From Mytilus edulis (lineage: Eukaryota): a DNA stretch of 64,000 nucleotides. Positions 12,241 to 40,564 of this stretch are shown in pieces. Position numbers and translations under genes: made by a program. Position 1 is the first letter of the stretch. Each line of letters starts with the position of its first letter. The stretch is taken from contig NC_092352.1 in the NCBI RefSeq assembly GCF_963676685.1, positions 24,924,001 to 24,988,000 on the forward strand. The letters are read 5' to 3'. The notes beneath the pieces were generated by a model. It ran no database searches, was not told where the DNA came from, and was given only the letters and a program-made list of their open reading frames with translations.

Positions 12241-13329
12241 TTTGTCTCATCATCCTATACTGCTGTGCATCATTTTGGTGGCCTAAAAATCCGCTTTCAA
12301 CATAGCAAAAGCTTTCAGTACAAAAACTGCTGACATCTGTGAAACGGTGATGCATGACTGTCAGATTCAGCGGAAGAGTTAGAAGTAGCCCGAGTTGAAG
12401 CAGAAGTAGAAGCGCCTAGCCTAATGTTGACAAAGAACCTGGAAATGAAGCTGAATCTTAACAAACACCAGAGAAACACAAACGAAAGGCCAAATTCGAG
12501 CGTCGATGAACATCATCCGCGAAAACCAGATTGCATATAACAGATTTATTACAAAAATAAATCCAAAAATAATGAACGTTATCGGAGTTTAATAGTTCTT
12601 CTTAAAACGAATCCGATTGATTGTAGATTAAGAAAAAAAATAAAATGTTATTTCCTTCATTTTTTTTAAAATTTATATATATTATAGTTAGAACATTCAC
12701 AAATCTTATTCACTGGTTCTTAGCTCAAAGGTTTCTGTGAGTTATAGTCCTGATCACTTGACATCTGTAGTTTTTTTCCGTCATCTTTTGCGATTGGAAA
12801 ACATAACGGTTGTTAGCTTTACATTTCAACAGGTATCTGTCCACTGCGCAGTAAAACATATGTCAACCATCTGTAACGCAATATTGTGTCTCAGGCCGAA
12901 TCACAGTTTTACCTGTATATAACACGTTCTCATCTAAAATTAGAAATTCTCATATGCCACTTAACTTATTTTTGTGTGAAAAGGCTACAACATTTGTGAT
13001 TATTGATATATTACGCGTTAAAAACTCACTGTATAGCATAAATGATATTTGTTTGTCATCTTTTGGCAAGATTTGTGATCTTTCTTTGTAAATGCGAACC
13101 AAAATTTCATTTTTTTTTATCATAAACCTTTTTCATAGGATGCTAGAATGAACTTTTTTAACACCAAGGAAATAGTTCACGTAAATAAACCCTAAAAAGA
13201 TACTCATTCTGCATTTTTGTTATACTTTTATGTCATTTTTGAAATATATACATTACATAGCATTTACCCATCTTTATTTCAGATGTTTCAATGAAAAGAA
13301 TGCTAAATTAAGTCTTTTTTCTCTTACTT

Positions 13330-14150
13330 GTATTTGTCAGGTCTGTATGCCTGCATACCACCCTGGTGTATGCTAAAACCTCACTGTATGCATATACAAG
13401 TATCTTTCAGGTATGTATACTAGCATACCGACCTGGTTAATGCTAAACTCTCACTCTATGCATATACAAGCATTTTTCAGGTCTGTATGCTAGCATACCG
13501 ACCTGGTTAATGCTAAACTCTCACTCTATGCACATCCTAGTATTTGTCAGGTCTGTATGCTAGCATACCGACCTGGTGTATGTTAAACTCTCACTCTATG
13601 CATATATACTAGTATTTGTCAGGTCTGTATGCTAGCATACTGAACTGGTGTATGTTTAACTCTCACTCTATGCATATACTAGTATTTTTCAGGTTTGTAT
13701 GCTAGCATACCGACCTGGTTAATGCTTATTTTTCACTCTATGCATATACTAGCATTTTTCAGGTCTGTATGCTAGCATACTGACCTGGTTAATGCTAAAC
13801 TCTCACTCTATGCATATCCTAGTATTTGTCAGGTCTGTATGCTAGCATACCGACCTGGTGTATGTTAAACTCTCACTCTATGCATATATACTAGTATTTG
13901 TCAGGTCTGTATGCTAGCATACCGACCTGGTGTATGTTAAACTCTCACTCTATGCATATATTCTAGTATTTGTCAGGTCTGTATGCTAGCATACCGACCT
14001 GGTGTATGTTAAACTCTCACTTTCTGCGTATATAAGTATGTGTCAGGTCTGTATTCCTGCATACAAATCTGGTGTATTTAGAACCTTATATATATATTTG
14101 TTTTGGTATAGTTAAGGTCTGTATGCCTGTATACGAACCTGGGATATGTA
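13330..14150. repeat. ~60-62-bp minisatellite, about 13 units, each with palindrome CAGGTCTGTATGCTAGCATACCGACCTG
   Basis: Directly visible tandem array. Confidence 0.95.
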
Positions 14151-15290: not shown

Positions 15291-17059
15291 TATACTATGG
15301 TAACAATTGTGTATACACTGGAGTTGTAAAAACAAATCCTTAACCAGGAAAGCCAAAGAATTGATGCCTTTTCTAGTAAAGCCATGCATACATTATTAGC
15401 AGGAACAGCAAAAAGACTGGTGTTGTTCATTGGTGTCATAGTTTTCTAGGAAGGCATTGGTTTAACCTATCCAGTCACTAAGAAGTGTTACAATTAAATT
15501 CATAAGCAACACATAAATAGTTACATGAAAGGTATAGCCAATGTTTGAAAAATGCTGAAACGAGAAATGGAAACTACATATCATATACATATATATGTGC
15601 GAGTAAATATTTTACACTTCACAAATTTAACATTGATGTAGCGTGGTCAACTACATCAAAGATGTGATGGTCAATTATACTTAATTTGTTGAATGATCTT
15701 GCATCTTGATTATTAAATGTGACAGTTTGTACGGTACATGAGTTGCACAGTAGAAATGTAATAACATTTGGACGTTTATCAAAGCAAGGTTTAATTTAAT
15801 TTAAGGACAGCGGTTCATAGCACGATTTTGTAAGAAACTTTTTGTATTGATCACTTATATTGGTGTAGTAGCTTAAAGTAACAATTAAGTTGCGATATAG
15901 ATTGTAATGAAGTAACATGTTGTTTTATAGAGTTGGAACTAAGTAACGTTTTGTATTGGAATTTATAACTGTGAACCTGGGTTGTGAACCTTTTGAATAT
16001 ATCATATATACCTGTACTTTTATATGATTAAACATGTGAACATTAAACAGACTTCGTTACTCATATATAGACTGAAGTGAGCCTATATATATATATATAT
16101 ATATGGTGAAATATTTAATAGCTATTTCCTTATGTAAACGGGCAAGAAGGATTAGATCCCAGATACATATATCCAAAGTAATGACTGTCAAAAATACACA
16201 GAACAAAGACCCGTTTAGCGTTACATTTATATCACAATTACTGATTTTAAAGTTTATATGAACTAAGGGTTCTTTATAGTGGTTGAATTGAACTCGTTCC
16301 CTTGAAAAACAAATTGTCGCCATGCATGTGATTGATTGAAGATCAATGAAATATGTCATTTCCTTAGTAACATTCATATTTCCAATTTGAACACTCTTGA
16401 AATGTGCTGTTCTAATCCTTTTGCAATAAATTTATGAATAATTTGTTTGAATTACATCTTTTCTAAAAAAACTAAAAAGCTAAACAAAAGACGGCCAAAG
16501 CTACGTTTTCTTTTTCATTGTATTGTGACAAGTAACCCCCAGGGCATATATTTTTTTATTTTTATATTATGCTGTAAATATGTTATTTCAAATGGATAGA
16601 ACATGAGAATTATTGTGATATTTAGATTTTTGAGACTTGTTGTTATTTTGAGAAAGTTCCCGTACTTTTTCATCTGTAACTTTTTCGGGATCGACCCCAC
16701 TTTAGACATACTTTCTGTCAATTTTGGACAATGACAGCCAAACTTACTTATATACACTCTTTTCTAAAGTCGAATTGAGTTTGAGAATTTACTTTTCCCC
16801 ACTGAAGGTTATGCATTTTGCTTAAACTTGTCGATCTTCGTTTCTGTTACAGACAGCATGTATCGCTATCCGCCATTACTTCAGATGAACGGCTAGCGAT
16901 TTCATTGGTTGATTAAAAGAATAAAGTATTTTACCTTAATTTTTGTAGAAATTGTTATAGAAATGTTTTATTTTACGATTAATGTTAGAAAATGTAAAAG
17001 TTTATATTTTAATAACTTTGTATTCTTTGTCGATTCAACTTGTTAAAGAATGGAGCTTT

Positions 17060-17205
17060 TTGATTGGCTATTGGTTACTGTGCAAGATGGGGCACTTAAG
17101 GGTATCGTGCATGCCCCTGTGCGGTACATTTGCACTGCCGTGCAGTGGCGGGTATTATATAACCTTTCGAAAACGCTGCACTGACGTCACTTTCACGCCA
17201 TTTTA
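17060..17205 (+). promoter_or_regulatory. Putative LTR Pol II promoter
   Basis: ATTGG (CCAAT) boxes at ~17063-17075, TATATAA 17156-17162, CRE palindrome TGACGTCA 17182-17189 overlapping Inr-like TCACTT, YY1-like CGCCATTTT; mirrored in the 3' LTR. Confidence 0.5.
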
Positions 17206-17576
17206 TTAGGGATTGAACCGCTGCCAAAATTTTATTAGAAAGTAAGGCCAATTTTTACGTTTAGAAACTTATTTAACTAAATTTTCTTATTGGAAAAACG
17301 TAATTTTACAGAGATTTTAATGATAATTTCTAGAAGTTTATTTTCATTTCAAAAGTAACTTTTAAAGGCTGTTTTACGAATTTATGGTTCAAAATTTCAT
17401 TGTTTTGGAATTGTAAAGTTTTGTTTAAGTACATTTTACCGGAAAGTTAGATTTTTCTATTTAAGAGTCCAAAGCCAATCAAACTATTTTTGCGTTTAAA
17501 TTATAGACTGTGTTATAGGATTTTAAAGGTATATCTGAGAGTTCTTTGTTACACTTTTATTGTCCTCTATTTTACA

Positions 17577-18618
17577 AGACATACGCTACTAGTAAAGTCT
17601 CTAGTACACTTGTCTACATTTACGCAAATTAAATATTATATTAGATAAGGTAATAGGGACACAAAACATACGCTACTAGTAAAGTCTCTAGTACACTTGT
17701 TTTGTTTAAATAACTATAAATAGGGAGATTAGTTAAAAGACATACTCTACTAGTAAAGTCTCTAGTATTTTGTCCTGATTAAAATAATTGGAATAAGGAT
17801 AAAGGGCTTACGCTACTAGTAAAGTTTCTAGTACATTTGTCCTGTTTAAATAACAGTTACTGTATAAATAGGGAGATTAGTCAAAAGACATACACTACTA
17901 GTAAAGTCTCTAGTATATTTGTCCTGTTAAAGTAATTAAGATAAGGATAAGGGTCTCAGGACTACACTGCTAGTAAAGTCTCTAGCAATTGTCTTGAAGT
18001 AAATAAGAAAACCAAGTTACAGATAAACACTATTTTGAGTAAACTTTGAGATAAATTAGATGGCATATGCTGCTAGTAAGGTCTCTAGCACAATTGCCAT
18101 AATAGCTTAAATTTGTATAAACTGAGATTAATTGATTTTCTCTTCATAAATCTATTTGTACATTCATTTACAAGTAAATACTAAAAAAACCTTTAGATCT
18201 AAGGCATACGCTCTAGCACAGGGTCAGCTAGCGCACTTGCCTCTAAATTTTGTACACCTGATAACGCTCTAGCACAGGGTCAGCTAGCACACTTTCTTGT
18301 GTACTAAAGTTATAACGTTTATAATAAAGAATTTAATACATTAAAAACCTTTTAGAACTTAGGCATACGCTCTAGCACAGGGTCAGCTAGCACACTTGCC
18401 TCTAAATTTTGTACACTTGATAACGCTCTAGCACAGGGTCAGCTAGCACACTTTCTTGTGTATTAAACTGTTGAATATTCTATTGTCTATGTAACGTTAC
18501 CAATTTAAACTCAGAAGTTAGGTACTCAGTTAAACCTTTAAGTGATATATATATACCTCAGATATACCTTGTTAATATTAGACATACGTTACTAGTAAAG
18601 TCTCTAGTACACTTGTCT
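17577..18618 (+). repeat. Array of 12 interspaced ~38-50-nt stem-loops inside the 5' LTR
   Basis: Class A (GACATACGC-TACTAG-TAAAGTCT-CTAGTA-CACTTGTC) at ~17577, 17661, 17738, 17804, 17886, 17956, 18060, 18580; class B (ACGCT-CTAGC-ACAGGGTCA-GCTAG-CACACTT) at ~18202, 18252, 18361, 18411; compensatory changes in the stems. Confidence 0.9.
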
Positions 18619-19021
18619 CTTTGTTATATGTAATATTTGCTACTGGTCTCATTGTTACATACCAGTGTCAGTGTATCTGAAGAGCGAAACCCTAGTCAAA
18701 TAATAAACACACTATTGTTATTCATATTTTTATTGGTTAACTGTAGTCCTTTAATAGTCCATTATATATATTGAAAGTGACCATAACATCATGCCAATAA
18801 TAAAGTATTGAACTTGAAAACGTATTTCCCTTTACTTTAGATTTTAACAAATCTAGCGAGACATAGAGTTTGCTTTTCCAGTCATTATATCTGGTTTATT
18901 GTGTCACCTCAGTTGGTTCTGATTTTGAGATTTAGTCTTGGGTCAAGGTCTTGTGTACGTTCATTGTTTGGGAGTTTGCTGACAACCTTATTTGCCATAT
19001 AGCTCTTGCGCGCTACATTTT

Positions 19022-19039
19022 TGGCATCCTCGGTGGGAT
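19022..19039 (+). other. Primer-binding site
   Basis: TGGCATCCTCGGTGGGAT, separated from the LTR end by 4 T; priming tRNA not identifiable with confidence (partial resemblance to Leu/Asn 3' ends). Confidence 0.75.
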
Positions 19040-19083
19040 CTGCTTGTCATTTGCGGATCCAGTGGTACGAATATCTTTTAATT

Positions 19084-20765
19084 ATGGTAAAAAGGAAGAA
19101 TCCAGCACTACCCAAACCAGGTGAAAGGAGCGAAATAGACAGAGACGGATGCCATCGAGACTGACACAGATTGTAATATGTACACAGACTTTTCAGAGCC
19201 AGAAACTGACGACAGAGATGTTACAGTAATACCAAAAGTAAGCGTGATAAACTTGCCCAGCACTAGCTCTATACCAATTAGTTCAGATATCAGACCAAGA
19301 AGAAGTTTGAGACTGTCCAGGAAGAGAGAAGTCCATACAGAGAGTGAGAGAGAAGAACCTGAAATGCAAAGTCATGGTGACACAGCTGGTGTTTATGGTA
19401 TAATTAAAGGGGCATTTCAAGAAATGACCGGTCAATTGGTGACAGCAATCCAATCAGCATTCAAGGGTTTCCACAGTGATACCAAGTTAACTGAAAAGGG
19501 GGAGACTAGAAAAGCAAAGAAAAGACCAACAAAGTCCAAAAGTGACCCAGGCAGATTACATCCTGTGATGTCCAACTTTGCCATCCAGTCAGACAGTGAT
19601 GATAGTTCAGATGAAAGCAGCTATGAAGATTCTATAGAAGGCAGTATAGATACATGTTACATAACAGAACCCAAAAGAAAACCTGCTATGTCTAATAATG
19701 TTAAATTACCAGCTTATACAGGCAAAAAAAAAATGGGAGGTGTACTACAATAGATTTGAAGCTGTTTCTAAACTGAGTCATTGGGACGACTACACCAAAC
19801 TAGCAGAGCTACTTCCTCGTCTACAAGGAGAAGCAGGTGACTTTGCCTTTGATCAACTTGCCCAAAGAACATTATCAAGCTATACTAGATTAACCAAAGA
19901 GATACACAACAGATTTGGAACTTTCGAGACCAAGAAAAACTACAAAACATTGTTTAATAGACGAAACCAGAAATCTGACGAGAAACCAGAGGCTTATGCA
20001 GCAGAGCTGAAACGGATTTATGACAAAGCTTACAAAAACAGAGATGTGAAAATTAGGCAAGAGGACCTGTTACAAAGATTTCTGATGGGACTTTCTGACC
20101 ATGACAGTAGGGTCCATGTGGAGCTATATAAAGAACCAAACACCATTGAAGAAGCAGTGCAAGAAGTTATCACTTTTACTGAAGCTATAAGTCCACAAGA
20201 AGACCATACAGTAAGCAAATTTAAGAAGCAAGTTAGGCAGGTTAAGGGAAAACAGAAAACTTACAGTAAAAAGGGCAAAGACAAAGGAAAGAAACAAGAT
20301 GACCAATCACTTAGTGAAGACAGTGACCAACCTAACCCTCCTAAACCAGGATTCACCACTGTAGATATTGAACAAATTAAAGATATAATAAAGCGAGTAA
20401 ACTAGGAGCAAAGGAGAGATGAAAACATACAGAAACCAAATGGGTACCAGGGGAACTCCCATTTTAGCTCTTCACCAAATTATGTACCAGATTCTAACAG
20501 TTACAATAGAAGAGAAAACATAAATACTGCAAATCCACCAAGTCAACAGGGGTATGGTAGTCAAGATACAAAGAAAAATTTTGCTTGTTATTATTGTGGC
20601 CAGCCAGGACATTTTGCCAGGAACTGCTTTAGTAACCCAAATCGACAACCCGACTTTAAAAGAAGCCAACCATGGAATGAAGGAAGAACAAGGGAGGTTA
20701 CTCCACCAACTCTAGATTTTAGGTCAGGGAAAACTGAGTCTTTCCCTGAAATAGCTTTAAACTAG
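19084..20765 (+). pseudogene. gag: gag (capsid-like domain plus CCHC zinc knuckle), disrupted
   Basis: VKLPAYTG/KKWEVYYNRFEAVS..W..KLAELL..LQGEA and RRNQKSDEKPEAYAAELKR capsid motifs; CYYCGQPGHFARNC at ~20586-20627; frameshift in the A10 run at 19724-19733 and TAG at 20403; start position uncertain. Confidence 0.9.
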
Positions 20766-20798
20766 AGAGGGTCAACTCCAATGACCAGGAGCTGACCC
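20756..20798 (+). other. Programmed -1 ribosomal frameshift signal (gag to pol)
   Basis: T TTA AAC slippery heptamer immediately before the gag TAG, 6-nt spacer, hairpin GGGTCAACTCC-AATGACCA-GGAGCTGACCC; the -1 frame is open into the protease ORF. Confidence 0.85.
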
Positions 20799-23700
20799 AG
20801 GGTTTTCAGGAGAAAGGTCAAATTTTGAGAGAGGAGAATAAAGAAGTGTCACATAGCAGCAGTAGTTCAGTAGAGGTTTTGAGTAGAAATAAAAGTAGTT
20901 TTAATGAGGTTATTGATTTCTCACAGGGTGAGAATGAAAATTTATGTTCAAGCTGTGACGACAGCAGTGAACAAAACTTGATTAGTCCACAATTTATTGG
21001 ACGTCAAGTACTCCGCAGCGAAGGAGTTTATATTGAGGGTCATGTGCAAGGCACTGAAGTGAATTTTACAGTTGATACAGTGGCCTCTCGAACAGTGTTA
21101 TCGAGAAGGGCTTTTCAACAAATACCATTTGCTAAAAGACCCCTCTTAAAGAAGTCAAATATGCTGGCTAGTGCCGATGGCAAACCACTACATGAGTTAG
21201 GGAAAGCCATTTTTGACATCAAATTAGGAGATTTACCTTTTGAAATTGAAGTTGTAGTTGCAGAGATTGAGGACGAAGCCTTGTTGGGTCTTGATGTACT
21301 TATGAAGGCAGATTGTGGACCAGCTAATTTAAGATTAAGCGACGGGATTATGCTGCTAGGTGATACTTCCATTCCCTGTCAACAAATTGGCTTACCTGAA
21401 AGAGTAAGAAAAATTAGAGTAGCTGATAATTTTTCTATACCGCCCAGAAGTGAAATGCTTATAGATGTTTTTATAGATAGATATGAAGATGACCAAATTT
21501 TAGGATCCTTTGATTTTGTTTTAGACCCCACGGAAGATATATTACAGAGATACCCAGTTGTTATGGCCCCTACTATAGTTAACATTGAAAAAGATGTAAC
21601 CAGTTTAGTTAGAATATTAAACCCTTTTGATACAGAGTTTACTTTATATCAAGATACAGTTATTGGAGAAGCTGAAAGCTTGATAAAGGAACCAGAAATT
21701 TTAGTTTCATGCGAAGATAAAGCTGAAGTCAGTAATTTTTCAGTAGTTAGACGTATTAAATTAAGTGACCATAAACCAGTTCAGTGGGAAACCAACACGG
21801 GAATTATTAGGAACATTTCAAAAAAGGGACTGCAGATGGTGGGAAAAGTGGTATTGTTCCTGATCACTTACAGGATTTATTTTTAGAATCTACTAAAGAA
21901 CGTTCAGCAGAAGAATGTGATATTATTTGTAATTTATTAAATAAATTTTCAAATGCTTTTTCTAAAAATGACATGGATTGGTTTAACTAATTTAACAGAA
22001 CACTGTATAGAGACAGGGGATGCCAGACCAGTGAAGCAGCCACCAAGAAGAGTACCTTTGGCCTATGCTAATGAGGAAAAGAAGTTGGTAGACCAGATGT
22101 TACAACAAGGGATTATCCAGAAATCGCACAGTCCATGGGCATCTCCACTGGTTTTGGTTGTGAAGAAGTCTGGTAAGCTGAGACCATGCTGCGATTTTCG
22201 CAGGCTAAACAAGCTAAGTCGGCTCGATAGTTTTCCTATTCCACGCATACAGGACTGCCTGGATACTTTGAGTGGTTCTACCATTTTCAGTACTTTTGAT
22301 TTGATCAGTGGTTTCAATCAGATCCCTGTAAAGAAAGAAGACATCCCTAAGACTGCATTCGTGACTAAGTATGGTCTATTTGAATACAAAACTCTCCCGT
22401 TTGGTCTTTGTAATGGGCCGTCCACCTGTCAAAGACTAATGGAATTAGTTTTAAACGGTTTACAGTGGCAAACTTGCCTAATTTACCTGGACGACATTAT
22501 AGTCTTCTCCCCTAGTTTTGACCAGCATATTGAAAGACTAGAAGAGGTGCTCCTTAGAATTTTGGAGGCAGGGTTAAAGCTGAAACCAGAAAAATGCACT
22601 ATGTTAAAGTCAGAAGTTGCATTTCTTGGTCATGTTGTATCAGGAAAAGGGGTTCAACCAAATCCAGATAACATTGCCAAAATTTTAGCTTGGTCAGTGC
22701 CAACAAATGTAACTTAAGTCCGTCAATTAATTGGGATGGGTAGCTATTATCGTCGTTTTATTAAAGATTTTTCTTCTCTTGTGAAGCCTCTAACAGAGCT
22801 CACTAAGAAGTCAAATGCATTTATCTGGTCGAATGAGTGCCAAAAATCTTTTGAACAACTTAAAGAAGTATTTATGAGTCCAGAAATAATGGGATATCCT
22901 TTAGACAAGGGAGATTTTATATTAGATACGGATGCAAGTGATTTTGCCATTGGAGCAGTTTTGAGCCAAATTCAAGATGGAAGACCCAGAGTGATCGCTT
23001 ATGGCAGTCGTACCTTAAATAAAGCTGAGTGCAATTATTGCATTACAGACAAAGAATTGCTGGCAGTCCGGTATTTTATAGAATATTATAGGCAGTATTT
23101 ATTGGGTAGAAGTTTTATGGTCAGGACTGACCACCAGGCCTTGATATGGTTATTTAGCCTTAAAGAGCCTAAGGGTAGGATTGCCCGGTGGATTGAAATA
23201 CTATCCGCTTTTGATTTTACTGTAGAATATAGACCAGGCCCCAAACATGGAAATGCAGATGCTATGTCACGATGCATAAACCCCCGTGAGTGTGATTGTC
23301 CCCAAACAGACCATATGGAATATTTGAAATGTGGTCCTTGTGCGAAATGCACAAGAAGAGCTCGTGACATGGTGACTTCCATGATTTTCCCCCCTTTTAT
23401 AGAAGAAAAGAAAGTTTTTAAAAGTCTTAATGTAGTAAAGACAAGGAAACAGACAGAGGAAGCTAATACTTGGACCATTTAGAAAACAGGACATACTATA
23501 CCAGAGCTAAAGAAATTACAAGAGGAAGATGAAGCCATTGGCCATATTTTTAAATGGAAAACAGATGGGAAGAGACCGCCATGGAGAGATGTGGAAAGTT
23601 TGAGTCCAGCTACCCGACATTATTGGCACCTTTGGGAATCCTTATTTTTTAAAGAGAATTTACTCTTTAAAGAATTCTCTAAGCGAGATGAAACTGCTGA

Positions 23701-24838
23701 CCAAATACAGTTTTTAACCCCACAGAAATTGAAACCTGAAATCTTAGCTCAAATGCATAATTCCATTACATCTGGGCATTTGGGAAGGAAAAAGACAAAG
23801 GCAAAGCTTTCCCAGAGATTTTATTGGTATGAGATGAGAGAGGAAATCACCATATGGTTAGCAAAGTGTGATATTTGCCAGGCAAATAAACCTCCAGTAA
23901 AAGGATACAGGGCCCCTTTAGGAAGTATGCCTACTGGTGGACCATGGGATAGATTGGCTACTGATATTTTAGGCCCTCTTCCTGTCACACCAAGACATAA
24001 TAAATATGTTTTAACGGTAACAGACCATTTTACAAAGTGGGTCGAGGTTTTTCCTGTACCGGACTCCACTGCTGTTACCTGTGCTTACTTGATTTTAAAT
24101 GATGTTATATGTCGTTATGGTTGTCCACTTGCCTTACACTCTGATCAAGGTCGCAACTATGAAAGTGATATTTTTCAAGAGCTGTGTTCTATGTTAGACA
24201 TTAGAAAAACAAGAACCAGTGTAAGAAATCCAAATGGTAATGGTCAAACAGAGCGATTTAATCGTAGTTTACTGTTTATGATTAAATCTTATTTACAAGG
24301 TGAACAGACAGACTGGGATTTAAATCTTGGTTGTCTTGCAGGTGCTTACCGGTCTACTCCGAATGAATCTACAAGTCTTACTCCTAACTTGTTGATGTTA
24401 GGAAGGGAAATCAGGTTTCCAGTTGAGGTGACACAAGCAAAAGTTTTGGTTCAAGGTGAAGTCCAAGTAAATCCAGGCGATTTTGTCTGTGAATTAAGAG
24501 AGAGGTTGCAAAAGGCTCATAGTGTTGCCAGAAAACATTTATCAGCAAATGCTAAAAGGCGTAAAGATTACTATGACCAGAAAGTAAACTTTGTCATTTA
24601 TAATATTTTTGATAAGGTTTGGTACTTAAACGAGACAAGGAAGGAAGGCATAAGTCCAAAACTTCAACCCTTATACTTGGGACCTTGCCTTATTACCAAA
24701 AAGTTGAATGAAATTAATTTTGAAATACAACTAGATGCTAAGGGAACCAGAAAGGTTATTAATCATAACAAGTTGAAACCTTACATTGGTGAAAACATAC
24801 CCAAGTGGATGAAAATAGTTGAAAAACAAATTTCTTAA
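20756..24838 (+). pseudogene. pol: pol: protease, RT, RNase H, integrase (HHCC, DDE, GPY/F), disrupted
   Basis: VDTVAS (DTG degenerate), LPFGLCNGP..YLDD, LDTDASDFAIGAVL..TDHQAL, H..GH..C..C, TDILGP..HSDQG..TERFN, LYLGP; frameshifts at ~21825 and ~21977, stops at 22715 and 23480. Confidence 0.96.
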
Positions 24839-25261
24839 CTGTTGTTAATGGCCGGTTAAACTCCATTATCCTTTGTCTGTACTATACTTGAGTGATAAAC
24901 TGAAAATATAAAAATAAATTTTTGTAAATATCAGTAGAGATATCAAATATGAATTCATTATTTTTATGAATTCTTCCAAAGAAATCTAACTTGACAAGTT
25001 AGGGATCAAATCTATATTTTGCTTACCAATATGAAAATTGTTAAGTATTTAATTTAATTTTAAATAATATAAACTTGGTGTATGAAATTTTTATATACCG
25101 TTTAATAAGTATGTAATATAAACGTACCTTCTTTTGGCTTAAGGGTATAATTATCTCCCCTGTATAAAGCTAAAATAAACTTCAGATACACTGCCAGGTT
25201 ATTTCTGGGACCAGACCTATTAAACTGGACAAGAGTTTTAAAGGTCCTATACTCTTTTTAG

Positions 25262-26506
25262 ATGAGTTTCCAGTATGATGCCGCCAAGGCCAAGAGAATG
25301 GCAACCATCTGTCTTCTCTGTACTGATTCTCCTGCTTATATGGGCCAGAAGCATAGAGTTGTAACACACATTTTGGTGAACCATGTGTCAGTTTCGAGAA
25401 CACCTTACTTCTGCACACTTTGCCAGTTTAGATGCACCAACATGGATACTCTGAAACAGCATGTGAAATTTCATAGGCCTCATCAGACATTGAAGGATAG
25501 CTTTTCAGCCTTGCCAGACAAGGACTACTTTCTTATCTCAGATTCACCTTACTTCCCGTAGGCAGGAAGAGATTTTAAACTGTTGCCTAGGCAGAGACCC
25601 GGTTTGGGCACTACAATAGACCCAGTAGAATTGAGTTCAGGAAGCAGTACTGGTGGAGTATCGCCTCCCACTGTACCAACATGTGTGATACCAGAACGGC
25701 CAGTAGGAAGGGCCACTGTTTACATACCATGTTTTATGCCACCACCAGAATCAGAACCAGTCCAGTTTGTAAATTACACTTCTCCATCTGATATTTCCTC
25801 ATATCTACCTCCACCTCCTTTCGACTTCAACCCAGGACACTGGTCATCACCCTCCATCCAAGCTTCACCACCCTTGCCAACAGAAACCAACATTGTTCAG
25901 GAAATAATACAGGAGAACCAGGCTGCCCTTGGGATTGACCTCCAGTACACAAACACCATAGATTTTTTTGATTTACCAGAATCGCCATTGGTATCCACAC
26001 CAGAACTGGCCTCTACAGTGAGGAACATCATTATGAGAGACAGAGAAATAGGGGAAGAGGAAAATTTGTTGCCCCAGCTGTTAGGTGATAGCAACCCACC
26101 TGTATCACCCTCAACAAACCATCCAGCCACGGAATGGAATGGTGTTCCTCTTAGCCAAGGTCCAGAACTTCATTCATCCTCATCCTCCTCTTCATCTGAT
26201 TGCTCTGCTCTGGGAGAGGTGAAACAGTCAATATCCACTTTACTAGAGAACACTGCGGCAGAGCATTCAAAGACCAGAGAAAGTATTGGCCAGTTGGGCA
26301 CGGTTATTGAAAGTCTGGTGTCGCAGGTACAGGGTTTGAGATCAGTGGTAAGGGAGCAAGGGGATGAAATCAGGAGATTAAAGAACGATCGACCGAACAC
26401 AACTACCATCGTAAACAGATCCAGAATTCAGCAAAGGCGCCGGACGCCGACACCCAGCAGACAGAGATTTGGCCATCCACTTCCACCTGCAAAAAGAAGA
26501 AGATAA
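25262..26506 (+). CDS. Accessory ORF3 in the env position: 2 C2H2-like zinc fingers, Pro/Ser-rich region, coiled coil, Arg-rich tail/NLS; one in-frame TAG at 25559
   Basis: ORFs 25262-25561 and 25583-26506 share a frame; C-x2-C-x15-H-x4-H and C-x2-C-x12-H-x3-H; heptads LGTVIESLVSQVQGLRSVVREQGDEIRRLK; ends RSRIQQRRRTPTPSRQR..PPAKRRR; ATG directly preceded by CTCTTTTTAG. Confidence 0.75.
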
Positions 26507-26724
26507 ACTTGTTATATTTAGGGTATTATAAATTTTGGGTAAATATTTAGGGTAAAATGGTAGAAAATCATGAAATCAATTTGAAATTATGTAAGGGAGA
26601 GTAAATTAAATTTTTTTAAAATGTTATCCAGCTAAATAATGGTTTTATTCAAGAGATTTTATAAGTATTGAAAAATTTTCAGAAATCAAGTTTATAATTG
26701 TTTAATTCAAATTGTTACACTTTT

Positions 26725-27021
26725 AACAAGAATGTGTCCTCAGTACACGAATGCCCCACTCGCACTATCATTTTCCATGTTCAGTGGACCGTGAAATTGG
26801 GGTAAAAACTCTAATTTGGCATTAAAATTAGAAAGATCATATCATAGGGGACATGTGTACTAAGTTTGAAGTCGATTGGACTTAAACTTCATCAAAAACT
26901 ACCTTGACCAAAAACTTTAACCTGAAGCGGGACAGACGGACGGACGAACGAACGGACAGACGGACGGACGCACAGACCAGAAAACATAATGCCCCTCTAC
27001 TATTGTAGGTGGGGCATAAAA
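26725..27021 (-). mobile_element. Non-autonomous Helentron-associated (HINE / pearl-CvA-like) element nested in the Gypsy 3' UTR
   Basis: AACAAG end with subterminal ATGCCCC, internal (GACG/GAAC)n microsatellite, terminal hairpin ATGCCCCTCTAC-TATT-GTAGGTGGGGCAT, A/T-rich insertion site. Confidence 0.75.
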
Positions 27022-27552
27022 ATAAAACATACCTTTCTGTTCAATCATTTTCTTTTAAATTCATTAGATCAATAGCATTTCCTGTCATACTGAAAAATAT
27101 AATTTTAGATTTAGCTATGTGTTACTTATAGCATGGTAAAGGGTCGATCATTTATTGTTGTGTATTTTAAACTGTATGTATTTAAGTAAAGTAATATGAT
27201 ATAGTTAATATTGTATTGGATAATGGTTGTGGATGTACCTAGTTAAATGGTGATACATTATTAGAAAAGAAATTTTTGAAATTATTTTTACTGTTAAATT
27301 ACTATAGTAAAGTAAAGAAATTATTACTTAACTCATGAGTTTCTTAAAGATACGTACCTTTACTTTGGAAAACGTCTCTGCTTTAATTTATTTATGACTA
27401 AACACTAGTCATAATTTGTTGAAGAAATATTTTGGTGACAATAAATATAAATTTTTGATATTTGCAAAATGTGGAAAGCTTTTCAAAGGTGACACGATAC
27501 AGGGAGAAGATGTTTTCTAGTCCGTCCAATTTGTGGGGACACAAATTTTAAC

Positions 27553-27564
27553 AGGGGGGTAAAA
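27553..27564 (+). other. Polypurine tract
   Basis: AGGGGGGTAAAA immediately before the 3' LTR TG. Confidence 0.8.
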
Positions 27565-28958
27565 TGTGACAAGTAACCCCCAGGGCATATATTTTTTTAT
27601 TTTTATATTATGCTGTAAATATGTTATTTCCTTGTTATAGATAAGATATATGTTTTGAATTGTTAATAATGTTATTTATTCTATATGAGTGCTAAGTTCC
27701 TATGATAATAGAACTAAAATGTTTGTTTATTGTTCATTGAAGAGATATTTTCATAAAATAATCCAAGTCAGGAATGTTTTCATTTTTGCATAAATTGTAA
27801 ACATCAAGATTTTTGTTAAAATGACTTTCCATATATTTTTATGTTTACCTAGTCATGGTAAATGCTTTAATAATTGTGTTGTGTATTGACTTGTATCAAC
27901 AAATGGATAGAACATGAGAAATATTGTGATATTTAGATTTTTGAGACTTGTTGTTATTTTGAGAAAGTTCCCGTACTTTTTCATCTGTAACTTTTTCGGG
28001 ATCGACCCCACTTTAGACATACTTTCTGTCAATTTTGGACAATGACAGCCAAACTTACTTATATACACTCTTTTCTAAAGTCGAATTGAGTTTGAGAATT
28101 TTCTTTTCCCCACTGAAGGTTATGCATTTTGCTTAAACTTGTCGATCTTCGTTTCTGTTACAGACAGCATGTATCGCTATCCGCCATTACTTCAGATGAA
28201 CGGCTAGCGATTTCATTGGTTGATTAAAAGAATAAAGTATTTTACCTTAATTTTTGTAGAAATTGTTATAGAAATGTTTTATTTTACGATTAATGTTAGA
28301 AAATGTAAAAGTTTATATTTTAATAACTTTGTATTCTTTGTCGATTCAACTTGTTAAAGAATGGAGCTTTTTGATTGGCTATTGGTTACTGTGCAAGATG
28401 GGGCACTTAAGGGTATCGTGCATGCCCCTGTGCGGTACATTTGCACTGTCGTGCAGTGGCGGGTATTATATAACCTTTCGAAAACGCTGCACTGACGTCA
28501 CTTTCACGCCATTTTATTAGGGATTGAACCGCTGCCAAAATTTTATTAGAAAGTAAGGCCAATTTTTACGTTTAGAAACTTATTTATTTAACTAAATTTT
28601 CTTATTGGAAAAACGTAATTTTACAGAGATTTTAATGATAATTTCTAGAAGTTTATTTTCATTTCAAAAGTAACTTTTAAAGGCTGTTTTACGAATTTAT
28701 GTACATTTTACCGGAAAGTTAGATTTTTCTATTTAAGAGTCCAAAGCCAATCAAACTATTTTTGCGTTTAAATTATAGACTGTGTTATAGGATTTTAAAG
28801 GTATTTAGTATCCAGTATCCAGTCATTATATCTGGTTTATTGTGTCACCTCAGTTGGTTCTGATTTTGAGATTTAGTCTTGGGTCAAGGTCTTGTGTACG
28901 TTCATTGTTTGGGAGTTTGCTGACAACCTTATTTGCCATATAGCTCTTGCGCGCTACA
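27565..28958 (+). repeat. 3' LTR (1394 bp)
   Basis: Near-identical to the 5' LTR but carries an extra 270 bp (27631-27900) and lacks the ~1.35-kb hairpin block and a ~42-bp segment. Confidence 0.95.
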
Positions 28959-30479
28959 GTATACATGCTAGTAGTCAGCTATTAAAATTGTAACTAACAC
29001 GTAATAATATGTAGATTTATAAAAAGTTTGCCAATGAAATCTCCTTGTTTTATTGGTCATTAACAATACAGGGATGAATCTTAGTGCTATTGTTGTAACA
29101 TTAAGGGGCTTTATCACAACTATTAGTGAAATAAAGTAACTGTATCTGAAGTATCTTAAAAAAAGATGCTCATAAATTACCCTGTTACAGTATTGATTTA
29201 AACAGTCTAGTGGCGGATTAAGATATTTTCATAAAGGGGGAGGGGGTTCCAGCCAAGGTTCAGTGATTCCTATATAATCAACCAAATGTTTCCCACAAAA
29301 GCGGGGGCGGGGGGGGGGGGGGCAGGTACCCTTTGTATCTGCCTATGGGACCCAACATGAAAAATAAGAAATGATAATGTATAGCAAAACAATTCACGAA
29401 AAAAACCGGAAAAAATTGGAACCAATGAAAACTTCAATAGTCAGGCTCCTGACTTGGGACAGGCATATAAAGACTATATAGTGTGGCCGGTTTTAACATG
29501 TGAGCGCTCGTCTTCCCTTTTTTTTTTTTACCTGGGACAGTTGTTTCCCTAAAAGTTGTAAGAATAAGACATGAATATCCAGAAGTTTCAAAAGGGGGAT
29601 GAGATAGGGAGGGCACTGCATGACTTCTTTAGAGATGGACGCTTCAGTACTGTTTCCCTCAATAAATCAACTAAAGTTTTTCCACAAAGCACTGGCATAG
29701 CACCCCCTCAAATTCTACCTCTTGTATGTGTACGTACTACATGTTCAAGCCGACCTCCAAAAAAGAGGGTGTTAAATGAAATCGTGAAAAATGTACAAAA
29801 ACAGCTAGGTTTACGTACCATAAATACATCCGACATTCTGTTTTGCTTCTGGTTTATTCAAATCAAGATAATAGAGCGTATTTTTGTCCATTTTCTTCTC
29901 CGTGAGGGGAACTCCTTCATTGATCATTCAAATTGTTTACATTTATAAATGACGTCATCTAGATGGAGTGCGTGACTCCGCAGATAAATAGTCCTTTTTC
30001 TTTGACTTTTTAATAATTACCAATACCAAGCTTAAGTATAAACAAAACAGGTTGTTTTGTAATCAATTGCTATTATTTTAATTAAGTGTACTGGTAAAGT
30101 AACTTGTGTAAGTCAAGGCTATCCATCTATATCCCTCCGCCTTACGTCAGAATGTCCCTGACGTCATATAAATTTTGGTCAACAACTTCGAACCTTGTAC
30201 AAATTATGATCGCCTCATTTTTCCGTAATTTTAATTTGCAAACAAAACAGATAACTGTCAGGTCAATAAAGCGATCATAGTCATGGAACTTGAGAATTGG
30301 TTTTCATTTATAGATTTACAACAGTGAACGCTTTACCGGTTTGCCTTGCAAATTAACTCTTTTCTGTTTACCAACGGGAGAAAATAAAGAGGTCAGTGGT
30401 AGGCTTTTAGTTTTTTAAAAAAACTCGAAATCGGCAATAAAGTAAAACCACAACTATACTGACGCAAAGGATTTTTTGG

Positions 30480-30700
30480 AACACCCAGGTTCGTATGCTA
30501 TCATACAGACCTGTGAAATACAACATCTGATTCAATATTTGCTGTTCTGCATACACCAGGTGCGTATGCTAGCATACATACCTGGGAATGCAATGTATTA
30601 ATTAAATGTAGACATTAGCATAAACCAGGTACGTATGCTAGCATACAGGCCTGAGAAATGCAAGTTAATTTATTACAATTCAGTTCAGCATACACCAGGT
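30480..30700. repeat. Inverted, more dispersed copies (3-4) of the 13.3-kb palindromic unit
   Basis: CCAGGT(T/G/A)CGTATGCTAGCATACAGACCTG-like units. Confidence 0.85.
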
Positions 30701-38722: not shown

Positions 38723-40564
38723 TTCAGATACACCTATGGACCAATTTCCCATGTTATAACAGGAGACCTTAACATCGTTCGCGACCGAGAGTTAAAATCA
38801 TTCCTCAGTAAAGGACCTAAATATCGTCCCCCGTCAACTATTAACTGGAATGAGTGTCGTAATATCATCAACGACTCACTCCGCGCCTACTGTTTGAAAT
38901 GGGTAAAACGGGAAAAAGCTGACAACAAATCTTTGGACTCTTTTTTTAATTCAGTAATGAAGATAGTTGATATTCGAATACAACATTTTAAAGAACATTT
39001 TACCCTCAACAAAAACTATAAAAACCCTATTTCGCGTATCAAAAATAAACTAACAGAACTAGCCAAGGAATTTGTTTTTGTCCCGGCTGATAAAGCTGCT
39101 AATAATATCCTTATTGTTTGACGTAAATTTTATATAGAGGTTCTGCAAAAGGAAATCACGAATTCACCAACATTCCAACTGACTTCATTTTCAGAAAACG
39201 ACATCTGTAACAAACATAAACTTTTGGCTACTTCTTTACAAGCAGAACCAAACACAATGAAAGTCCCAACTATGTACTGGCTTCCGAAGCTGCACAAAAA
39301 ACCCTACAAATATAGATTTATTTCATCTTCTAGCCATTGTTCAACTACTAAATTGTCTGTTTTACTTACTAGTACACTTGGTACAATAAAAAACCTGATA
39401 ATAAATTGTTCAAATAAGGCCTTTGAAAATAGTGGAATTAATTACTTTTGGAGTGTCAAAAACTCGTTGGAAGTACTTGATAAATTGCATGCATATATTG
39501 GTGATTTTGAATCTGTTCAAAGTTTTGATTTTTCTACCCTATATACCACTTTGCCTCATATTCTTATTAAGAAAAAATTCACATCCCTAATTAACTGGGC
39601 ATTTAAAAAGTCGGAATGCGAGTACATATGTTCAAACTCTTTTAGATCATTTTTTAGTAGCAATAAGCAAAAGAACTATGTCAATTGGACATGCTTTGAT
39701 ACTATTTATGCACTTGAATTTTTACTTGATAACATTTTTGTTCGCTTTGGAGATTCCGTATATCGTCAAGTTATTGAAATTCCAATGGGGACTAACTGTG
39801 CACCACTTATTGCGGACCTGTTTTTGTATTGTTATGAGTTACAATTTATGACTAAAATTAGCAAAGACCCATCAAAACAACATTTGATACAAAAATTTGA
39901 CAATACTTTTAGATATTTGGATGATATATTGGCTCTAAATAATGACGACTTCAGTATGTATACTAAAGAAATTTATCCTGTAGAACTTACTTTAAATAAA
40001 GCTAATGATAACAATGACCACTGCCCTTTCCTCGATCTTGATATCTATATCATAAACGGGAAGCTTAATACAAAAATTTATGATAAAAGAGATGATTTTT
40101 CATTTCCTATTGTTAATTATCCATTTTTAGATGGTGACGTTCCCTTGTCACCATCTTATGGTGTTTATATATCTCAACTTGTACGATTCGCTCGTGTATG
40201 TAACAATGTATTAGATTTTAGCGAGAGAAATTTATGTATTACTGAAAAATTATTACACCAGGGTTTTCGATATCACAAACTGGTCAAAACATTTACTAAA
40301 TTTTATCACCGGTATAAGGAAATAATTCGTAAATATAACTCAACATGCAGACATCTTATACGTTCAGGTATTTCACATCCAAAATTTTATGGAAATATTC
40401 TTTATAAAGCACAAAAGTGTCAGTATTCACCTCAGAAACTAACAAAACCTTTAAATAGACTTATTAAAAGGGGATATAGTTACGATACTGTTGTCAGGTC
40501 ATTAAAGATTGCATATTTTGGCTTTAACATTGATTCACTGATAGGGTCTTTGCATCGGAACTAA
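38723..40564 (+). CDS. Penelope-like reverse transcriptase, probable selenoprotein (in-frame TGA 39119-39121)
   Basis: Single open frame HVITGDL..LSKGPKYR..DKAANNILIV*RKFY..YWLPKLHK..FDFSTLYT..IPMGTNCAP..RYLDD; only one internal stop; no C-terminal GIY-YIG. Confidence 0.88.

Follow-up and report, generated by a model that had tools for sequence, protein, structure and literature searches.

Covarying hairpins within a mussel Gypsy retrotransposon's long terminal repeat form a candidate RNA platform, probably for one of the element's own proteins

Why does a mussel retrotransposon carry a dozen similar hairpins in its long terminal repeat (LTR), and what would recognise them? We addressed this question in a 64,000-nucleotide stretch of the Mytilus edulis genome (NC_092352.1, positions 24,924,001 to 24,988,000), called the window below, and give all positions in window coordinates. 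The array-bearing element is a Ty3/gypsy LTR retrotransposon that runs from 16524 to 28958 on the forward strand and is flanked by a 4-bp target-site duplication, GTAT (16520..16523, partner 28959-28962). Its 5′ LTR (16524..19017, 2494 bp), bounded by TG and CA, lacks about 270 bp of U3 compared with the 3′ LTR. Downstream are a primer-binding site (PBS, 19022..19039) that matches tRNA-Arg(TCT) genes of the same genome, gag and pol (19084..24838) with Pfam domains in the gypsy order of protease, reverse transcriptase (RT), RNase H and integrase, a third open reading frame (ORF3) and a polypurine tract (PPT, 27553..27564). The 3′ LTR (27565..28958), from which the equivalent of 17533-18876 is deleted, has neither array nor AATAAA, and a 13-nt filler (28805-28817) marks the deletion junction. 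The window copy is decayed, with gag, pol (split with gag into several frames) and ORF3 all interrupted. By RT, close relatives are found in records from Pinctada, Mya and Mytilus. Unlike the env of Errantivirus-like elements, which encodes a glycoprotein with signal peptide and TM anchor, ORF3 has no Env family match at E<=1 and carries fingers at its start and an Arg-rich end.

Some neighbouring features were recorded separately. A GATCC-N-GTGATACG-like motif just 3′ of the PBS (19055-19072) is kept in six families, with a similar motif in two distant ones, and is possibly a second tRNA contact or a dimerisation or packaging signal. Tandem tRNA-Arg(TCT)-type genes, at least 88 of them listed, are spaced by about 600 bp at one genomic locus (L062; G000:C4, ~50.72-50.78 Mb), where ARAGORN calls the alternate gene tRNA-Lys(TTT) though its 3′ end is shared with the Arg gene. 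The 3′ UTR of the element contains a very high-copy 300-bp insert with a GGAC microsatellite (26725-27023; read depth >26,000). A 70-bp tandem repeat with a palindromic GTATGCTAGCATAC core (13325-14077 and 30478-30657) is unrelated to the LTR array and is probably a satellite carried by a MITE or Helitron. A stop-to-stop frame of 480 aa (39122-40564, forward strand) has no Pfam match.

The twelve covarying stem-loops described in the initial annotation were all located and folded. They are two-stem hairpins with a CTAG-loop-CTAG core, lie on the forward strand and span 17574-18622 of the 5′ LTR, the cores starting at 17589, 17676, 17750, 17816, 17898, 17970, 18073, 18213, 18269, 18372, 18428 and 18592. 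Eight units have an 8-nt loop (type A): u1 (17574..17619), u2 (17661..17706), u3 (17735..17779), u4 (17801..17846), u5 (17883..17928), u6 (17955..17999), u7 (18058..18103) and u12 (18577..18622). The other four have a 9-nt loop (type B): u8 (18198..18246, loop ACAGGGTCA), u9 (18250..18306, with a long outer stem) and their duplicates u10 (18357..18405) and u11 (18409..18465). The division into eight and four agrees with the initial annotation, but its single fixed short loop does not hold, for six units have TAAAGTCT, u4 has TAAAGTTT and u7 has TAAGGTCT. From the outside in, a type A unit has an outer stem of 5-8 bp, then a small internal loop, a single pair (changed from G-C to A-U in u5), a C bulge, a stem of 6 bp and finally the loop. 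The inner switch from TACTAG/CTAGTA to TGCTAG/CTAGCA, found in u6 and u7, and the outer stems were as first described, and G-U pairs occur in the outer stems of u4 and u6. All 12 units fold as hairpins (z -1.0 to -3.8 against dinucleotide shuffles). In the centroid of the whole-array folding about 9 of the 12 are kept, and u1, u3 and u12 pair otherwise. The units are not independent, since u3-u5 are related by duplication; u8-9 and u10-11 form a 159-bp duplication, 93% identical over 133 bp. Among u1, u2, u6, u7 and u12, cores match while the spacers are unrelated.

Rfam gave no match to the array above gathering score, SNORA66 (E=1.1, 21.7 vs 45 bits) being the only hit and outside the array, and the loci of eight relatives gave 0 matches. 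Likeness to a ribozyme, IRE or SECIS motif was rejected because Rfam supports none of them. An H-type pseudoknot between loop AAGU and a downstream ACUU was also rejected for its 1-nt linker geometry, and type B lacks it. The small-RNA precursor role proposed at first is unlikely, as the stems are just 5-8 bp and flank an internal loop.

The array is a family trait and not a private insertion. LTRs among the loci listed have 11-22 units each, with 6 in one partial locus, and both LTRs of four other elements contain the array. An exact 22-mer pattern had 37 matches in the 1.37-Gb genome, 37/37 inside LTR copies of the family, and 0 for the reversed control, which speaks against an unrelated MITE or satellite. 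A looser unit pattern (46 matches vs 94 in the control) was uninformative. A loose structural descriptor, requiring A[AG]G[GT] in the loop and a stem no shorter than 5, occurred 16 times in the window against 4.05 expected (0/60 shuffles), was borderline in two sister families (2/60 shuffles each) and was non-significant in five others. Between copies, shared variant sites amount to 2.0% in inner stems and 12.3% in spacers (p=5.5e-5), whereas the two do not differ in private changes (p=0.31). Misalignment of paralogues may account for the spacer figure, and the unit cores (2-6%) are no better conserved than unique LTR parts (1.8-4.5%).

Pairing is kept through double changes across units and sister families, as the initial annotation would predict. 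Of the cells in the window's eight units of type A, 94.8% are paired, and 7/12 pairs are double-changed, including all five of the outer stem; 0-1 of 500 shuffles matched this, and slid controls pair at 28-49%. The 76 distinct rows from 13 loci are 94.9% paired, with cell count and score above shuffles and a double-changed pair count no higher than shuffles (158/500). These shuffle counts are not probabilities, because the units are related by duplication. As a hold-out, which is the stronger test, a model built from the window units only was searched against 547 kb of other Gypsy elements (65 loci) at E<=10. It gave 30 matches. Two sister families, with 79% and 74% RT identity to the window family, account for 25 of them, among which are ranks 1-21; all 25 lie between Inr and AATAAA in the sense orientation. 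These 25 matches represent six distinct unit types, and just six rows have E<0.05. Two of the remaining five lie by their coordinates in another relative's leader and three elsewhere, and none of the 30 is in U3. The sister LTRs have either no blastn match to the window LTR or one of 67 bp. When the three families are compared, 95.6% of the inner helix is paired, and 4/7 of its pairs are double-changed (0-2/500 shuffles), for example from CTAG/CTAG to CTGG/CCAG. One sister LTR also has an extra 425-bp segment (L071:4340-4780) containing a unit with the exact window-family loop TAAAGTCT, in which U-G replaces U-A; perhaps this reflects recombination between families.

These data bear on a neutral origin, in which a minisatellite would have grown from a palindromic seed by template switching, its stems being mended by hairpin-templated mutation. 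Such a process would account for unit numbers that vary by visible duplications, for cores conserved no better than unique LTR sequence and for the loss of the array from the 3′ LTR in the window. However, the motif persists in sister families with otherwise unalignable LTRs, matching cores are embedded in unrelated spacers, and palindrome repair would erase the internal loop, which is kept. We consider the neutral origin very unlikely. The selected, base-paired, multivalent element of the initial annotation agrees better with an array that is family-wide, covaries and recurs in sister LTRs dissimilar by blastn. It is quite probable that the array is a selected hairpin platform on the RNA of the element.

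Would the array be transcribed? A TATA box at 17156 with an Inr-like ACGTCACTT (17156..17195), whose spacing is kept in the sister families, would place the start of R near 17188. A candidate splice donor, AA/GTAAG (17242..17247), follows about 55 nt past this putative start, and the AATAAA poly(A) signal is at 18799..18804. Three families share the TATA box, the Inr-like motif ACGTCA and, 50-56 nt further on, the donor-like motif AAGTAAG, and in the same number of families the AATAAA lies in a AATAAAGTATT context 170-220 nt before the LTR end. The earlier placement of the array between TATA/Inr and AATAAA is thus borne out by motifs that are present at conserved positions. R would be about 1.6 kb long, compared with 15-250 nt in retroviruses (PMC12789967, available text). 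Because the array precedes the poly(A) signal, it would be in the 3′ end of full-length RNA from any array-retaining LTR, whatever the start site. The leader is depleted in ATG (7 vs 21 expected), clearly so in the window family and two relatives but not in five others. A leader intron that ends at an AG in U5 is no more than conceivable.

Public reads did not refine this frame. Three putative RNA runs, as contigs, cover the LTR end to end including U3, two of them past U5, at a depth of 6-170 against 0-4 in the interior. One large run, probably DNA, has an LTR depth of 28-81 vs 9-20 in the interior. Such coverage resembles that of an LTR within some host transcript, or of DNA, and is uninformative on start, strand and splicing. 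A donor-to-ORF3 joint was not among the 15 joints listed, which are dominated by the high-copy insert in the 3′ UTR, and no retro-copied splice junction was found, as 11/11 genomic matches to pre-donor sequence run on unspliced.

Upstream of the TATA box is a cluster of six GCAC/GTGC motifs (16996..17155), candidate DNA sites for a transcription factor, possibly ORF3. In four related LTRs this motif (TGTGCGG-like) occurs 4-10 times per 160 nt before TATA, against 0.2-0.7 elsewhere in them. One such cluster lies at L093:3630-3790, one of the four LTRs is from another organism, and two other families have GTGTGTC repeats at the same pre-TATA place.

Which strand acts is less clear. The initial annotation stated that G-U pairs in two units work only on the sense strand. 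Both pairs exist, but the strand argument is weaker overall, as the antisense strand is more stable in 8/12 window units. The antisense strand folds better in the window family because C.A and A.C opposites in the internal loop become G-U on the other strand. Interior G-U exceeds A-C by 33 to 5 among 62 distinct type A rows, with events that are not independent, and by 34 to 14 when terminal and isolated pairs are counted. In 12 other families 65/79 units favour sense against a 60% background, the units being dependent and the patterns picked by eye. A sense-strand RNA hairpin is the best reading of evidence that is mixed, and weak for the window family.

The alternative at the DNA level is an enhancer or insulator array of inverted half-sites for a dimeric zinc-finger protein, either ORF3 or a host protein. 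The Su(Hw) sites of Drosophila gypsy are a DNA array of this type. The inner arms indeed make up an inverted repeat that hardly varies, its spacing is fixed and the spacers are AT-rich, ORF3 combines fingers with a coiled coil, antisense folds as well as sense, and one relative (L063) has fixed arms and variable 4-nt loops. Nevertheless, we regard a DNA array as quite unlikely. The outer stems change sequence between units without losing their pairing, the loop is asymmetric and conserved, relatives have free stems and fixed loops, interior G-U prevails over A-C, and the hold-out model does not match U3.

Hairpin arrays extend well beyond the sister families. Among 21 families with a definable leader (two more families have none), 15 show repeated hairpins by eye, and those of distant relatives are family-specific and lie in R or between PBS and gag. 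A family with 67% RT identity has 6-7 hairpins with AAGG loops and unrelated stems, so that the loop is fixed and the stem free. Short-LTR relatives have tandem two-stem hairpins from PBS to gag. One has 16 units and its sister 6-7, where U-A has become G-C in compensatory fashion; two more such relatives have 5-7 and 8 hairpins there. With these PBS-to-gag arrays included, a donor-like GT lies upstream of the array in every case. Non-autonomous elements of about 6 kb (L088 and L105-L106 of the L066 family; L089 and L104 of the L063 family), which encode Gag and protease only, have hairpins in the R region of their 1.8-1.9 kb LTRs, and the two LTRs of one copy are identical by blastn. A uniform scan was stricter than the eye and placed 8/21 leaders above the maximum of 3 in 20 pol controls (one-sided Fisher ~0.002). 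This count includes one leader whose 48-nt repeat is of another kind and omits the free-stem family, and the coding controls set a lenient baseline. In one LTR (L026/L025, C12 family), R contains three related units and, near the poly(A) signal, a 48-nt repeat (TGAGGTCAGATGTAC core) in four copies.

The relatives pair similar arrays with an extra zinc-finger gene, and therefore the array is probably where a protein of the element docks, possibly as HIV Rev does on its response element. ORF3 and Gag are the two candidates. ORF3 (25262..26506) is interrupted by an in-frame stop in the window copy and directly preceded by a pyrimidine tract and AG resembling a splice acceptor (25240..25261). It is 420 aa long in the window family and comprises two fingers of C2H2 type, a middle rich in Pro and Ser that includes an LLxxLL-like motif, a coiled coil and an Arg-rich tail. 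The last 45 residues contain 13 Arg in the window family and 10-13 across it and its two closest sisters. ORF3 is found 3′ of pol in 18/21 families with a definable leader, and a pyrimidine tract with AG precedes its start in all but one of the loci listed. Homologues come from Mytilus species and from metagenome and read assemblies, and a partial match with 97% identity is named Mytilus galloprovincialis. Ten metagenome loci contain ORF3; of two inspected, one has the order acceptor-ORF3-PPT-LTR-TATA and ends about 300 nt past TATA. In two other Gypsy families the third ORF joins a TatD DNase domain to a Cys/His finger-like N-terminus (L119:3092-4615, reverse strand, Pfam E=2e-39; the G000:C1 element of L124/L125, by motif only), and these ORFs also sit behind an acceptor-like site.

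ORF3 has the predicted anatomy of a nuclear nucleic-acid-binding regulator. Sequence and Foldseek matches are to classical DNA-binding C2H2 proteins. Finger 2 has a sub-threshold likeness to RNA-binding matrin/JAZ fingers (zf-met 10/26, zf-jaz 6/26), and the finger-domain model (pLDDT 74.6) has a weak fold likeness to the RNA-binding matrin/JAZ/TUT1 types (Z 3.2-3.8). The ORF3 fold search gave no Foldseek match at E<=0.001, a best VIA Z of 4.3 and ESM Atlas matches below 0.9. As the weak matches include both DNA- and RNA-binding fingers, the model does not decide the ligand. Loose patterns of a leucine-rich export signal match at scattered positions, none of them common to the compared ORF3s.

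The reading that we place first, tentatively and by a narrow margin, takes the hairpins for a multivalent RNA response element through which ORF3 would license unspliced RNA. Transcription would start near 17188, and the donor at about +55 would be spliced to the acceptor before ORF3. The spliced mRNA would encode the nuclear zinc-finger, coiled-coil and Arg-rich protein, which would multimerise on the hairpins of the full-length transcript. RNA bound by ORF3 would then avoid being spliced and be exported from the nucleus, to be translated into Gag-Pol and packaged. This action would resemble that of Rex on an element located in R, or of Rev on an intronic one.

Much of the above is consistent with an ORF3 target: the covariation, the sense-strand hold-out matches between Inr and AATAAA, the 67%-RT family that keeps the loop and frees the stem, and arrays downstream of a donor-like site, whose positions in R and in an intronic leader parallel RexRE and RRE. 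The prevalence of ORF3, its conserved acceptor-like site, its Arg-rich tail in the nearest families and the weak likeness of finger 2 to RNA-binding fingers point the same way. However, arrays are seen by eye in 13/18 ORF3-bearing families, some with 2-3 or weakly folding units, and in five there are none, while two families with Gag and protease only retain arrays without ORF3. The low yield of the uniform scan, the DNA-type C2H2 matches with the U3 cluster as an alternative DNA target, and the scattered export-like motifs also count against an ORF3 target, as do the better folding of antisense units and the ordinary conservation of unit cores.

The array could instead be a multivalent packaging signal read by Gag or nucleocapsid, a possible reading that we place a close second. 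ORF3 would then be a separate DNA-binding transactivator, Tas- or Tax-like, acting on the U3 motifs, for which the pre-TATA clusters in four related LTRs and the DNA-type finger matches would be natural counterparts. Arrays of short-LTR elements occupy the PBS-to-gag position of the retroviral packaging signal Psi (PMC12789967, available text). The non-autonomous Gag and protease families keep their arrays, five ORF3-bearing families show none, and the exposed loops are purine-rich. Some families have merely about 45-100 nt between PBS and gag, and there the array may have moved into R. Against Gag, spliced RNA too would contain an array located in R, at its 3′ end, so that the selection of genomic RNA is blurred, and the Gag zinc knuckles are alike across families whereas the loops vary widely, some having no G. 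The sole autonomous ORF3-less family examined has 0 arrays in the uniform scan, and the CCHC knuckle pattern is absent from this family and from its array-bearing non-autonomous relative. The ORF3 and Gag readings can both be true.

Host proteins could also be the partner, through constitutive export as by a CTE, localisation, or control of 5′ poly(A) across the long R. The structure, multivalency and transcribed-side position would suit such a role, and where R contains a poly(A) signal, the copy in the 5′ LTR has to be suppressed (PMC12789967, available text). A host partner is nonetheless unlikely. The motifs are family-specific within one genome, unlike what selection by a fixed host protein would give, and Rfam has no match.

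Returning to the two element proteins, either reading, if true, would be informative, as a new accessory-protein and response-element system or as a modular packaging signal in a far longer R. To our knowledge, export and selection of unspliced RNA by env-less LTR retrotransposons is known for few elements. The literature searched gave no account of the array or of a C2H2 ORF3 in mollusc Gypsy elements, and no description of the ORF3 family (zinc fingers, one branch with a TatD domain); subscription journals, Repbase/Dfam and supplements were outside its scope and may hold one. The mollusc Gypsy clades (C-clade, MolGy1-16) are bivalve Ty3/gypsy like the window element, but their survey is based on RT and RNaseH, and 'ORF' does not occur at a word start in its available text (PMC6238403). 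LTR elements of bdelloid rotifers also have a third ORF after pol, typically expressed from spliced messages, of Env, GDSL esterase, DEDDy exonuclease, coiled-coil or TM type; 'zinc finger' and 'hairpin' do not occur in the available part of that paper (PMC5408684).

Parts of the system resemble known retroviral devices. Rex, Rev and Tat carry an Arg-rich motif like the ORF3 tail, and their systems multimerise as in our ORF3 model. Their elements are single branched structures, whereas the window family has 11-22 modular hairpins among the loci listed, and mussel ORF3 differs in having zinc fingers, with export-like motifs that the compared ORF3s do not share. Psi is confined to unspliced RNA, between donor and gag, and by position this is true of the arrays in short-LTR relatives. 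The array also differs from Psi in its modular tandem units and, in the window family, in its location inside R, which would put a second copy at the 3′ end of the RNA. In HIV Rev/RRE and Tat/TAR, a structured element in R or an intron is combined with an accessory protein from spliced RNA (PMC12789967, PMC10309623, available texts), and the HTLV-1 RexRE lies in R (PMC2664473, available text), as the mussel array would by its predicted position. CERV of Cer1 from C. elegans demonstrates that an LTR retrotransposon can use an accessory protein for export. The exons of CERV are partly those of gag, and the protein contains a G-like domain and a candidate C4 finger; the available text reports no homologs outside nematodes, names no RNA target and contains neither 'stem-loop' nor 'response element' (PMC10309623). 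Mussel ORF3, by comparison, has two C2H2-type fingers and a candidate hairpin target. The cis-element of such systems has its counterpart in covarying hairpins downstream of the putative start, with weakly supported sense-strand action. Their spliced mRNA has its counterpart in the conserved acceptor-like site and the donor-like GT in R, with no junction among the joints listed. From this sequence-level comparison, we tentatively propose that a widespread bivalve Gypsy lineage possibly works like complex retroviruses, with a spliced zinc-finger accessory protein and a co-diverging, family-specific hairpin array, in R or the 5′ UTR, whose recognition by that protein would switch the output from spliced to genomic RNA. 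It would be an independent Rev/RRE- or Rex/RexRE-like pair, modular and with a kilobase-scale R, and the lineage would represent many natural pairs of protein and hairpin that diverged family by family inside one genome.
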